This document shows, piece by piece, positions 34,677 to 54,425 of a stretch of 54,425 nt of DNA; the stretch's first letter is position 1, and each line of letters begins with the position of its first letter. The translations under genes were made by a program, and so were the position numbers. Source of the DNA: a virus (taxonomy: Duplodnaviria > Caudoviricetes); the IMG/VR virus record IMGVR_UViG_3300031965_000039, positions 1 to 54,425 of that record. One strand, written 5' to 3'. The notes under the pieces were generated by a model. It made no database searches. It was given only the letters and a program-made list of their open reading frames with translations, and was not told the DNA's origin.

Positions 34677-35204
34677 ATGAAGCGACATTTCTTTTTGGTG
34701 ATGGCGGTTGCTCTTTTTGTTGTGACCGCAGCTTTTTCACAAACTCGGGTGCGCGAATATTTGCACCCAAATATCAAATATCCCAATGGCAAGGAATGGA
34801 ATGATGCTGTTGGAGATTCCTTGAGTGATGCTGTTCCTGATACCATAAGCTTTTCGGTATTGGGAAGTGGCAAGAAAGCGCCTATCAACGTTACGGTTAT
34901 GATTGAATGTAACGGTGTTGGTGGCGCTAAAGATTCTGTTCAAGTCACTTGGCGGGTCGGTCACGGAAGTCCGTTTTACGTAACTCTCGGTTCGGCGGTG
35001 AATGAGTTTACCACCGTTGCGGATGCTGGTACTTATATTATTCGAACATTTGTTATCAATACCACCGGTGCCGCAATTGCCAATAATGCTCAAGCTACCG
35101 TTGCTCCAGACTTTAGTGCTATGCAAATTGTTCTTAAACAAGCAACTGATGACAACGAAACGATTAGCTATCGCATTCGAGCCTGGGGTACTTACGAACA
35201 GTAA
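34677..35204 (+). CDS. beta-rich virion (decoration-like) protein with signal peptide
   Basis: MKRHFFLVMAVALFVVTAAFS/Q; directly after capsid gene. Confidence 0.7.
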   Translation: MKRHFFLVMAVALFVVTAAFSQTRVREYLHPNIKYPNGKEWNDAVGDSLSDAVPDTISFSVLGSGKKAPINVTVMIECNGVGGAKDSVQVTWRVGHGSPFYVTLGSAVNEFTTVADAGTYIIRTFVINTTGAAIANNAQATVAPDFSAMQIVLKQATDDNETISYRIRAWGTYEQ

Positions 35205-35210
35205 CATGAT

Positions 35211-35239
35211 GGGGGCTGAGATGCCCCCCTAATTTTTTT
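35211..35239 (+). terminator. intrinsic terminator
   Basis: GGGGGC...GCCCCC then T-run. Confidence 0.65.
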
Positions 35240-35249
35240 GGGAGAAATT

Positions 35250-52336: not shown

Positions 52337-52346
52337 AAGGATCACA

Positions 52347-52649
52347 ATGCTTGACATCATCGAAAAAAACGCACTGATTCAATTTATGCTATTAGGCGTG
52401 ATAATTCTGACACAGTTTGTAACTATTTTTGTTCTTTGGCGTCGTTCGGCCAGGATTGACTTGACTGATAGCGACAAGAAAGTGATTGCCTCATTCTTGG
52501 TTACTGAAAAGAATGTGGATAAGAGTATGCGACAGGATGTAAAATTATGTCCTGAATTTGAAGCTCCGTGTTTAGGGAAAAAATGTTTGGCTTATTTTGT
52601 TGACAGCAAGGAAAAACCGCAATGTATAAAAGGCTATTTGCTTTCCTAA
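52347..52649 (+). CDS. single-TM protein with Cys-rich C-terminus
   Basis: AAGGA SD; CP...C...C...C. Confidence 0.6.
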   Translation: MLDIIEKNALIQFMLLGVIILTQFVTIFVLWRRSARIDLTDSDKKVIASFLVTEKNVDKSMRQDVKLCPEFEAPCLGKKCLAYFVDSKEKPQCIKGYLLS

Positions 52650-54425
52650 TTATCTTTATTCCATCTGTAGTATTTTCACAATGGAGATCAGTGTGGATTT
52701 CTGGTAGTGGAGGAGCGTCAACTCTCTCAACTCTTGATGATGTTAGCATTAGTGGAATCGCTGACGGAGAAGGTTTAAAATGGGATGCAGGGCTCCAGCT
52801 TTTTATTCCTGTTTCCTTATCTGGTTCTGGAACAGTTACTTCCTTCTCAGCAGGAACTTTATCTCCCCTATTTACAACCAGTGTTGCAACCGCAACCACA
52901 ACCCCTGCACTCTCCTTCACACTCAGCAATGTTGCAGCGGGTTTGGTTTATGCTGGCCCTAAGACTGGAGCTGCAGCAGCACCGTCTTTCAAGCAACTGA
53001 AAACAGCTTATGCTGACTCAGTTGGAAATGATGGCTTCGTTACAAATGTAACGCTTTCCGATTCCATCATTGCGCAAGTTGATAGTGCTTTCGTACTCGG
53101 CTTGAAGTTTGTTCCTCATGGTGCCTTTGTTGGAAATACGGAGACATTAATAACGGTAACGTATCAGATTGCCGACCACACAGTTGACTTCGTGGTTAAT
53201 TCGGACTTATCACTATATTCTAATGTAACCAGCAAATTCTTTTCTCATTCCGATACCACATCAACCCTTGCAACTCAATTTGATCTGACTGCTAAGCAAC
53301 CCCTCGATGCTGACTTGACCGCTCTGGCAGCTAATTCCACAGACGGCCTTTGGGCACACACTGGTGCTGGAACTGGTTCAGCCCGGACGCTTACTGGTGA
53401 TACAGAGATAGTAGTTTCAAATGGAGATGGCGTTGCCGGAAACCCAACTCTTTCAATAGCCTCGACTATCGCTCGCGATTCAGAACTTCCTGACGGTAGC
53501 AAGTGGAACTTGTTCGGAACAAGCTTTGTCAAGCCTAAGACCGCTGGAGTTGGATGGCACCTGTTATCTCCAGATGGGACTGATTCCCTTGCAACGGCAA
53601 TAGATAATTCAGGCAATGCAACTTATGTTTCAACCCAGAGGAATATCTTTCAAGCATTGAATGACAACACGACTGCGCTGCAATTTAAAGACGCGGCGGG
53701 GAATGTGGATTTTAATTACGATGCCACGAACGCGAGGATTGGCGTCGGTACGGCTAATCCACAAGCTCCCTTTGAACTTGTGAGAAATGCGCAAAACTGG
53801 TTTAAAATAGTCTTAGGCACGAGTACAAGTCCAAGTTATGCCAACGAATTTGGTATAGCTGGAAGCAATAATGATTTCATAACCGGTTCTTTAACCGGAG
53901 ATGCAATTTTCAAGTTTGCTGCCGGAAGTAAGTTCATGATAGGTTCCGCCCAAAACGGAAATGGAGGGGGTACCCAAGTTGGAATCGCAACTTTTATGCG
54001 ATTGGGTAACGTTGGCATCATGACGACGGCACCAGACCGCGTACTGGAAGTTAATCTCGGAACGTCAAGCGCATTGAGATTGAGCTACGCCGATGACAAT
54101 GGTAGCGCGGTAAGCTACACCGATTTCACAGTTTCCAGCAGTGGTGATATGACCATCACTCCCAGTGGTGCCGATGTTAATATTATTGGAACTTCAATTG
54201 GGCTTGGAGCCGCAGGAGTCAGAATTTCAAATGATGGTGACGGAGCACTTACATTTTTAGGAATGGGAAACGGCAACGATGAAGACTTGATTTTGAATCT
54301 TGATGATGGAGTCGCTAATACAGGAACAATTTCGTCAAACAGCGGATTGGGTACGCTAATTTTCTCCTCAATAATCCTACAAGCAGATTACTATCAATCT
54401 GAAACTAACTTAGAATTGATCTTGG
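52622..54425 (+). CDS. tail fibre protein with signal peptide (3' partial; absent from ORF track)
   Basis: MYKRLFAFLIIFIPSVVFS/Q; LSTLDDVSI, GTVTSF, KQPLDADLTALA, NGDGVAGNPT, RIGVGTANP; frame appears open to window end. Confidence 0.85.
   Translation, partial: MYKRLFAFLIIFIPSVVFSQWRSVWISGSGGASTLSTLDDVSISGIADGEGLKWDAGLQLFIPVSLSGSGTVTSFSAGTLSPLFTTSVATATTTPALSFTLSNVAAGLVYAGPKTGAAAAPSFKQLKTAYADSVGNDGFVTNVTLSDSIIAQVDSAFVLGLKFVPHGAFVGNTETLITVTYQIADHTVDFVVNSDLSLYSNVTSKFFSHSDTTSTLATQFDLTAKQPLDADLTALAANSTDGLWAHTGAGTGSARTLTGDTEIVVSNGDGVAGNPTLSIASTIARDSELPDGSKWNLFGTSFVKPKTAGVGWHLLSPDGTDSLATAIDNSGNATYVSTQRNIFQALNDNTTALQFKDAAGNVDFNYDATNARIGVGTANPQAPFELVRNAQNWFKIVLGTSTSPSYANEFGIAGSNNDFITGSLTGDAIFKFAAGSKFMIGSAQNGNGGGTQVGIATFMRLGNVGIMTTAPDRVLEVNLGTSSALRLSYADDNGSAVSYTDFTVSSSGDMTITPSGADVNIIGTSIGLGAAGVRISNDGDGALTFLGMGNGNDEDLILNLDDGVANTGTISSNSGLGTLIFSSIILQADYYQSETNLELIL

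Follow-up and report, generated by a model that had tools for sequence, protein, structure and literature searches.

The morphogenesis of tailed phages is taught as a purely cytoplasmic process. To our knowledge, the fibres and spikes of T7, P22 and SU10 carry no signal peptide and are assembled in the cytoplasm. The virions of mycobacteriophages are glycosylated. Phage or phage-like proteins that leave the cytoplasm are already known, namely phage proteins with signal peptides of the Q-rule type, exported lysis proteins and, in Bdellovibrio, phage-like fibres exported by the general secretory (Sec) pathway. The Q-rule, a Gln directly after the signal peptidase I (SPase I) site, typifies Bacteroidota as described by Bochtler (2018, PMC5837995). 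The account of the Bdellovibrio MAT fibres indicates that folding outside the cytoplasm is possible for Sec-exported trimeric fibres of phage-like type (PMC10769870). Bacteroidota are also described as O-glycosylating non-cytoplasmic proteins at the sequon D-(S/T)-(A/I/L/V/M/T), a motif enriched mainly in that group and at which engineered sites are glycosylated (PMC12871550). The stretch studied here, hereafter the window, is the whole 54,425-bp virus contig IMGVR_UViG_3300031965_000039 (Caudoviricetes), which has no terminal repeat. Six of its open reading frames (ORFs), named SP1 to SP6 and all on the + strand, encode a Sec/SPase I leader followed by Gln, and the best explanation of their sequences is that they encode all the proteins recognisable in this phage as fibre-, spike- or carbohydrate-module-like. 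The most far-reaching interpretation, with a probability of about 0.45, is a particle made in two compartments: a cytoplasmic core would receive outward modules that are all Sec-exported, pyroglutamate-capped and O-glycosylated, and that would dock at the holin breach, resulting in a host-glycosylated virion. The six genes are the following.

34677..35204, + strand: SP1, ATG start, N-terminus ...TAAFS/Q; predicted exported jelly-roll protein of 175 amino acids (aa), directly after the capsid gene
36739..37815, + strand: SP2, ATG start, N-terminus ...QIFA/Q; fibre-like protein of 358 aa, its start overlapping the stop of the upstream gene
37812..38507, + strand: SP3, ATG start, N-terminus ...SVFG/Q; protein of 231 aa with no sequons and a basic C-terminal tail
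39115..41490, + strand: SP4, GTG start, N-terminus ...QSDA/Q; beta-helix spike-like protein of 791 aa with a fibre-type C-terminal tip
41729..42253, + strand: SP5, ATG start, N-terminus ...HVFA/Q; beta-sandwich protein of 174 aa, the densest in sequons
52622..54424, + strand: SP6, ATG start, N-terminus ...VVFS/Q; predicted exported fibre in a T7 gp17-like position after the ejection genes, its ORF running past the window end (full length 783 aa, P0059)

An earlier interpretation of this DNA, made from the letters alone (the sequence-only reading), had proposed leaders of this kind for the six ORFs, and translation reproduces all six N-termini at these positions. By eye, one to three Lys/Arg stand within the first four to five residues and are followed by a hydrophobic, uncharged core of about 11-16 residues, below a typical membrane span. 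A small or aliphatic residue occupies position -3 and Ala, Gly or Ser position -1; Gln comes next, and Cys is found at +1 in none. Leaders were called with a home-made von Heijne-type heuristic (not SignalP), which applies the -3/-1 rule and a hydrophobic core to all ORFs of at least 70 aa; together with inspection, it characterizes all six as type I signal peptides, neither lipoproteins nor long anchors. At any score, nine of the 79 + strand ORFs of the window were flagged (the six, a membrane protein at 227-406 and two low scorers), as was one of the 74 ORFs of the - strand, and the six are the top-ranked real genes in the window. The portal, capsid, adaptors, hub and ejection proteins (the last encoded at 46191-52336), for which the sequence-only reading had claimed the absence of leaders, were indeed not flagged, nor was the scaffold-like protein. 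In SP1 the heuristic favours the adjacent site VTA/AF; AFS/Q fits the -3/-1 rule too, and nearly all family members have Gln at the corresponding column. Each leader-including start is preceded by a Shine-Dalgarno (SD)-like motif, defined as GGAG, GAGG, AGGA or AAGG at -19 to -4; an in-frame ATG lies further upstream of the SP3 start, at 37737.

The background of such calls was evaluated in 162 loci of distant relatives, where signal-peptide-like ORFs amount to 55 of 2013 on the + strand vs 23 of 1781 on the - strand, with Gln at +1 in 15/55 and 0/23 of them respectively. Four cultured Bacteroidota phages have eight such ORFs among 218 on the + strand, one to three each; they encode lipoproteins or small proteins of the lysis region, never a fibre, and Gln at +1 occurs in none of them. 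No leader was found on the fibres of B40-8, phage 11b and P2559S, on gp21-26 and gp31-36 of crAss001 (where the fibres gp22-26 have ordinary N-termini), or on any of the 19 structural coding sequences of the proteobacterial relatives BcepMigl and KLEP18-1.

The leaders are kept in relatives of the phage. The closest relative detected in metagenome contigs with a capsid profile is L083 (capsid 72%, portal 61% identical), in which six leader ORFs lie between the genes for capsid and hub. The heuristic places Gln at +1 in five of these, and in the sixth Gln comes two residues later, behind Ala-Asn-Ala. One of them directly follows the capsid gene, as SP1 does; one of 233 aa is 38% identical to SP4 over its N-terminal 118 aa; one with leader and Gln (L083:14113-14643) is 46% identical to SP5; one leader-bearing ORF (L083:15730-16362) is 37.5% identical to the C-terminal 127 aa of SP2; and two have no counterpart in the window. 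The C-terminus of SP3 and that of L083 16366-17451 share a similar Arg/Lys run around Gly, the proteins being otherwise dissimilar.

An exhaustive phmmer search with SP1 gave 16 non-self proteins, 14 of which were fetched, two long partial matches being left out. At 31-47% identity, the leader is present in 13 of these 14 and the aligned column after it holds Gln, preceded in one case by Thr; the exception is P0048. Some of the SP1-family proteins among P0044-P0048 have two or three tandem jelly-roll copies behind a single leader. In the SP4 family, P0034-P0036 and the L083 homologue have the full leader and Gln, P0037 starts within the leader and keeps the Gln, and the alignment shows no variation at Gln19-Leu20. 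Ordinary phage-fibre N-termini are found in P0038 and P0040; P0039 begins with another type of leader, and P0041 resembles a lipoprotein. Among 119 fibre-motif homologues of SP6 (P0060-P0178), a leader and Gln could be recognized by eye in 24; many of these leaders are Ala-rich, which suggests high-GC hosts. Leader-bearing phage-fibre-like proteins are common in metagenomes. Leader ORFs with Gln at +1 also stand directly after the capsid gene in loci with capsids 29-43% identical, where the similarity of the leader proteins to SP1 is undetectable.

L085, 4437-4967: post-capsid leader ORF
L086, 8002-8520: post-capsid leader ORF
L089, 5716-6444: post-capsid leader ORF
L090, 7624-8289: post-capsid leader ORF
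L117, 10965-11816: post-capsid leader ORF, high GC (67-69%)
L140, 10950-11837: post-capsid leader ORF, high GC (67-69%)
L142, 5955-6842: post-capsid leader ORF, high GC (67-69%)

Retention of the leaders is thus seen in the SP1 family, the closest SP4 homologues and L083. The presence of Gln at +1 in all six window proteins and its conservation in homologues agree with the Q-rule type that the sequence-only reading had attributed to them. In the 40% relative L086, a 581-aa Beta_helix/NosD protein (13107-14852) has a leader- or anchor-like N-terminus with no Gln after it; the preceding gene (12607-13110) encodes a leaderless protein of 167 aa with a weak match to a phage-depolymerase C-terminal sandwich.

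Occurrences of the sequon D[ST][AILVMT] were compared with the expectation from residue shuffles. The leader proteins and their leader-bearing homologues are 2.5- to 4.7-fold enriched (first four of the following lines, observed vs expected).

six leader proteins of the window: 29 vs 11.5±3.1
six leader proteins of L083: 31 vs 8.0±2.7
SP1 family: 80 vs 17.1±4.1
leader-bearing SP4 homologues: 34 vs 12.1±3.3
leaderless SP4 homologues: 2 vs 4.6
leaderless structural proteins of the window: 17 vs 14.6
leaderless structural proteins of L083: 13 vs 12.2
48 other genes of the window: 28 vs 26.2
crAss001 fibres: 16 vs 13.1
BcepMigl tail proteins: 5 vs 6.4

Five permuted motifs, used as a control, gave 7-19 observed vs 7.5-11.9 expected. 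Per protein, the counts are 3 vs 0.6 in SP1, 6 vs 1.6 in SP2, 8 vs 3.3 in SP4 and 7 vs 0.8 in SP5. Individual sites are conserved as well: of the five columns that are invariant in the SP1 family, two hold the Asp of a sequon, and the Ser after the second is nearly invariant; six of the seven SP5 sequons occupy the same position in the 46%-identical L083 homologue; and two sequon columns of the SP4 family are confined to its leader-bearing members. A general property of fibres was considered as the source of the enrichment and rejected, since crAss001 and BcepMigl fibres do not show it, nor do the leaderless SP4 homologues and the 119 SP6 homologues. As the sequon is enriched in the leader-bearing proteins and not in the leaderless ones, it argues for a true arrival in the periplasm. 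Judging from leaders and sequons, the real export of the six proteins is highly probable, and the glycosylation of the leader proteins seems fairly probable. The same test needs nothing but sequence and could inexpensively mark phage proteins that are truly exported in this Bacteroidota-type host group.

The sequence-only reading had described the bodies of these proteins as decoration, tail-fibre, lectin and tailspike proteins, a description that is supported for fibres and spikes (SP2, SP4 and SP6) and not for the decoration role of SP1 and the lectin role of SP3. SP2 matches PHROG tail-fibre families (E 7.5e-6 and 1.1e-4). SP4 matches a PHROG tailspike family (E 1.2e-7) and, weakly, GH110 and GH28; its homologues P0034-P0037 have precomputed Pfam families Beta_helix/Pectate_lyase_3, and its C-terminal tip also occurs in cyanophage proteins. 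Compared with its L083 homologue, the N-terminal ~118 aa of SP4 are conserved and the remainder is divergent. Residues 219-393 of SP6 match cyanophage fibre and YadA-like structural proteins (E 6e-7); this protein has 436 fibre-motif homologues, and a PDB sequence search with it gave nothing. A short fibre motif of the Gly-Ile-Gly type is, by eye, common to SP2, SP4 and SP6. Fibre or spike family homology was not found for SP1, SP3 and SP5. The SP1 model (predicted local distance difference test (pLDDT) score 78.8) is a jelly-roll sandwich like those of carbohydrate-binding modules (CBMs), with matches to CBM16/22/61, the furin P-domain and Cry domain III (TMq 0.34-0.46) and also to uncharacterised phage proteins and tail proteins. 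For SP5, viral clusters and a low-confidence model provide leads to CBM-like beta-sandwich structures, and family scans of SP3 gave no match above noise. No leaderless fibre- or spike-like ORF was found anywhere in the window. An ORF of 122 aa (52281-52649) with one hydrophobic span and five Cys overlaps the SP6 start and has no family match.

The leader genes are part of a late operon on the + strand, made up of the large terminase, portal, scaffold-like and N4 gp56-family capsid genes followed by the tail and leader genes. The leaderless genes of this operon are listed below.

27483-28988, + strand: large terminase
30411-32489, + strand: portal
32840-33562, + strand: scaffold-like protein
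33577-34659, + strand: capsid, N4 gp56 family (PF13252)
38510..39118, + strand: putative adaptor N-half protein, directly upstream of SP4 and overlapping its start
43481-43831, + strand: putative adaptor C-half, PF24175 positions 103-182, E 1.2e-4, 23 bits (cut-off 27)
43835-46189, + strand: tail hub/nozzle-like protein of 784 aa
46191..52336, + strand: putative internal/ejection proteins

A leaderless protein of 294 aa (35858-36742) gave an unusable model (pLDDT 31.9). The C-terminal ~100 aa of the 38510-39118 product match positions 25-87 of PF24175, the SU10 adaptor family (E 0.024, 15.5 bits, cut-off 27 bits), and the protein is 58% identical to a 102-aa ORF of L083 (13094-13402); before this N-half it has an extra beta-rich domain of ~100 aa, absent from L083. 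The adaptor of L083 appears to be split likewise, into 13094-13402 (102 aa) and 18178-18522 (114 aa), whereas L089 (6809-7372, 187 aa, 63.8 bits) and L086 (44 bits) have an intact adaptor that passes the PF24175 cut-off. The cassette from SP4 to SP5 that lies between the adaptor halves (39115-43480) measures 4.4 kb in the window and 4.8 kb in L083, and its location ties SP4-SP5 to the site where podovirus fibres dock. The cassette also contains the sole reverse gene of the late operon (42764-43423, - strand), which encodes a Cys/His-rich protein of 219 aa that may be homing-endonuclease-like. The hub-like protein is 42% identical to its L083 homologue and matches Atlas viral clusters scoring 0.97 and one Phage_stabilise cluster at 0.92; a PDB sequence search with it gave nothing. 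A putative ejection protein of 1487 aa (47873-52336) has a ParB-like segment at residues ~404-465 (PHROG E 5.8e-6), and over residues 540-1354 it shares 31-32% identity with ORFs in L048 and L054. BLASTP comparison of the leaderless tail proteins with L086, L089, BcepMigl and KLEP18-1 revealed nothing significant.

The left end of the window carries a lysis cassette.

179-406, + strand: i-spanin-like protein
403-861, + strand: lipoprotein (...LVS/C), probably the o-spanin
858-1463, + strand: S-adenosylmethionine (SAM)-methyltransferase-like protein, between the spanin-like genes and the endolysin
1570-2133, + strand: GH24 endolysin, leaderless
2144-2816, + strand: two small membrane proteins

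In the established model of lysis, a leaderless endolysin implies large holin lesions (as reviewed in PMC6116005). The interpretation in two compartments may then be formulated as follows. The six late genes, interleaved and translationally coupled with leaderless head and tail genes, would yield pre-proteins that the host Sec system exports; SPase I would cut before Gln, host glutaminyl cyclase would form pyroglutamate, and at least SP1, SP2, SP4 and SP5 would be O-glycosylated in the periplasm at D-S/T-hydrophobic sequons by the general system of the host. The capsid, portal, split adaptor, hub and ejection proteins would meanwhile be synthesized and put together in the cytoplasm. Once the holin has perforated the inner membrane, the two pools would mix, and the capped, glycosylated fibres would attach to the completed particle before the spanins release it or as they do so. 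Since no glycosyltransferase or cyclase of the phage is recognisable among the ORFs scanned, the phage would rely on its host for these modifications.

The absence of a leaderless fibre, the cassette of holin-like, leaderless endolysin and spanin-like genes, and the position of the leader genes all fit this scheme. The sequence-only reading had proposed the same two-compartment morphogenesis; its export part is strongly supported by leaders, conservation and sequons, and the joining of the particle is something that we infer. We give about even odds to the whole two-pool statement, including virion incorporation after inner-membrane lysis. Within the two-compartment interpretation, export may be the route by which the phage obtains host glycans and a protected N-terminus, and the split adaptor may be part of the docking design, a proposal that we would place a little short of even odds. 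Possible benefits of export include host-type glycans, a blocked N-terminus and oxidative folding; a stabilising effect of the Q-rule has been described (PMC10653852).

As a whole, the window is best explained as an almost complete podovirus genome of lytic type, with a capsid protein of the N4 gp56 family and a diderm host of the Bacteroidota or Fibrobacterota-Chlorobiota-Bacteroidota (FCB) type. Its left arm encodes Erf, an exonuclease, a DnaD-like loader and a DnaB-like helicase, indicative of recombination and replication, and the window has one tRNA-Thr. Sibling contigs measure 55,815-55,950 bp, which implies that ~1.4 kb of the genome is absent from the window. A circular closure of the contig was rejected, as there is no terminal repeat and the joined ends give a frame of 661 aa vs the 783 aa of the true SP6. 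Among cultured podoviruses, capsid proteins such as those of BcepMigl, Ralstonia GP4 and KPP25 share no more than 27-30% identity with that of the window. The phage collection contained no near-identical DNA; tblastn against it gave no match for portal, SP1, SP2 and SP5 and only weak beta-helix matches for SP4. An IMG/VR scan found nothing with the single capsid protein, no SP1 or SP4 relatives, and only relatives at 27-37% with the capsid profile. A capsid search of genome contigs detected two distant capsid relatives only. The SP1 profile had two marginal matches among 401 genomes of the phylum of G001, and none in G001 or G002.

The Q-rule and the use of the sequon point to Bacteroidota or close relatives as hosts. 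SD-like motifs precede 28 of the 54 window genes (chance 6.4±2.2) and 7 of 17 in L083; the counts are at chance in B40-8 (5/46), P2559S (6/68) and crAss001 (9/45). High Q-values are also described for Ignavibacterium and a few genomes of the Chlorobi group (Bochtler 2018, PMC5837995). The host may be a member of a Q-rule lineage that uses Shine-Dalgarno sites, rather than a classical member of Bacteroidia or Flavobacteriia. This amounts to a testable host prediction: a Q-rule, O-glycosylating lineage using Shine-Dalgarno sites.

Several observations weigh against the two-compartment interpretation. The leader calls come from a home-made heuristic and inspection rather than from a predictor of SignalP grade. 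The SD-like motifs suggest that the host may not be a classical member of Bacteroidota, which weakens the transfer of Q-rule and glycosylation knowledge to this phage. Sequons are not enriched in SP3 (0 vs 1.2) or SP6 (5 vs 4.0), in the post-capsid leader proteins of the high-GC relatives (1 vs 1.1) or in the 119 SP6 homologues, where the 26 automatically classed as leader-bearing (two of them false positives) have 40 vs 56.8±7.7 and the 87 leaderless ones 205 vs 309. The lack of enrichment in the SP6 homologues implies that glycosylation is not a general trait of exported fibre-like proteins. No decoration protein is present among the structural matches listed for SP1, whose fold is a generic carbohydrate-binding sandwich. 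That the six are particle proteins is itself a conjecture from sequence and gene position. Finally, dilution would work against parts that meet only after lysis, and from the spanin-like genes the opening of the outer membrane is expected shortly after that of the inner one.

The alternative that survives best, which we consider rather unlikely, is that the six proteins are exported and glycosylated without being part of the virion. In that case, they would be periplasmic or lysis-released depolymerases or lectin-like binders that remove capsule or receptors from debris and from cells nearby, or mask receptors against superinfection, and true receptor binding would, with the same limited likelihood, reside in a leaderless protein such as the extra domain of 38510-39118, the hub or the product of a gene in the missing ~1.4 kb. 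All the evidence of export applies equally to this scenario and cytoplasmic assembly is the established rule for tailed phages, the folds of SP1 and SP5 are generic carbohydrate-binding sandwiches, and the SP4-SP5 cassette between the adaptor halves varies between the window and L083 as accessory islands do. The Q-rule proteins of Porphyromonas gingivalis phages were similarly interpreted by their authors as host-surface modifiers (PMC10367356). Nevertheless, the phage would be left without a recognisable fibre or spike, and the phage-fibre homology of SP2, SP4 and SP6 speaks against it, as do the classical fibre position of SP6 behind the ejection genes and the conserved N-terminus and exchanged body of SP4, which resemble those of virion-anchored receptor-binding proteins. 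Moreover, SPase I substrates devoid of a type IX secretion system (T9SS) domain or lipobox stay in the periplasm, where mature capsule and lipopolysaccharide (LPS) are no substrate. If this scenario were correct, the phage would release a conserved, glycosylated depolymerase/lectin-like set and hide its real receptor-binding protein, which would also be new.

Display of the exported proteins at the infected cell's surface or on vesicles, the other possibility offered by the sequence-only reading, is very improbable. The evidence of export is compatible with it, and phage-like fibres with an N-terminal signal peptide are displayed by Bdellovibrio (PMC10769870). Yet a protein of Bacteroidota reaches the surface only with a T9SS C-terminal domain or the export signal of a lipoprotein, and the six have neither such a domain nor a lipobox: Pfam gave no match to Por_Secre_tail or another C-terminal domain in the six (E <= 0.01) or in full-length SP6 (E <= 0.5). 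The proteins were for that reason also rejected as T9SS cargo. An equally slim chance is left to the idea that the hydrophobic N-termini are uncleaved tethers or assembly helices, so that the proteins would never leave the cytoplasmic side, where they would be built into the particle. Cleavage is here predicted from sequence and the spike-like protein of L086 has a leader-like segment without Gln, but cores of ~11-16 residues with canonical -3/-1 residues, a Gln at +1 that is invariant or nearly so across families, and an enriched, conserved sequon that is used only on non-cytoplasmic proteins all contradict it. The leaders are real and conserved as judged from sequence, neither chance nor wrong starts with true starts downstream of untranslated leaders, a notion with almost nothing left to it in spite of the alternative in-frame starts upstream of 37812 and the GTG start at 39115, given that the leaders persist in homologues at 31-47% identity, SD-like motifs precede the leader-including starts and Gln at +1 has a background of 0/23 in signal-peptide-like - strand ORFs and 0/8 in the cultured Bacteroidota phages.

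If the six proteins are in the particle, assembly spans two compartments and the timing of lysis becomes an assembly step; virions of Bacteroidota-type hosts could then wear host O-glycans, with consequences for stability, immune and mucus interactions and receptor recognition. In either case, every fibre- or spike-like protein of this lineage has a conserved signal of probable export adapted to the host, and most of them also have conserved candidate sites of periplasmic glycosylation. Within the terms and main texts covered by a full-text literature search, no tailed phage was reported to have its whole fibre/spike set equipped with conserved leaders, and neither O-glycosylated proteins of Bacteroidota phages nor sequon-enriched phage proteins were reported.

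Among known systems, the SP set resembles canonical podovirus fibres and spikes (T7 gp17, P22 gp9, SU10, crAss001 gp22-26), with which it shares beta-helix and fibre motifs, gene positions next to the adaptor/nozzle and downstream of the ejection genes, and a conserved N-terminus with an exchangeable body. It differs from the crAss001 fibres and from the structural coding sequences of BcepMigl and KLEP18-1 in having signal peptides. The Bdellovibrio MAT fibres are likewise tailspike- or fibre-like, with a signal peptide, a conserved N-terminal domain and variable tips; as described, however, their genes belong to a predatory bacterium, which employs them at its own cell surface, and many of them terminate with an S74 chaperone domain (PMC10769870), which family scans did not find in the six leader proteins or full-length SP6. 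Exported lysis proteins (Sec-dependent and signal-arrest-release (SAR) endolysins, T4 RI, spanins) resemble the SP set in their Sec export ahead of lysis and in that holin triggering joins the compartments (PMC6116005, PMC8385771). They are lysis effectors or regulators rather than fibres, and the endolysin of the window is leaderless. The substrates of Bacteroidota O-glycosylation share with SP1, SP2, SP4 and SP5 the D-S/T-hydrophobic sequons and are non-cytoplasmic (PMC12871550), with the difference that the known ones are host proteins, the literature search having found no phage protein among them. The P. gingivalis phages provide a parallel to the leaders themselves, as they encode Sec signal peptides with a predicted cleavage that exposes Gln, regarded as an adaptation to Bacteroidota export (Matrishin et al. 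2023, PMC10367356). By their description, these are five function-unknown genes in temperate prophages of siphovirus type. In the window, by contrast, the leaders are found on six genes of a podovirus late structural operon, including every fibre- or spike-like protein, and are accompanied by sequon enrichment.

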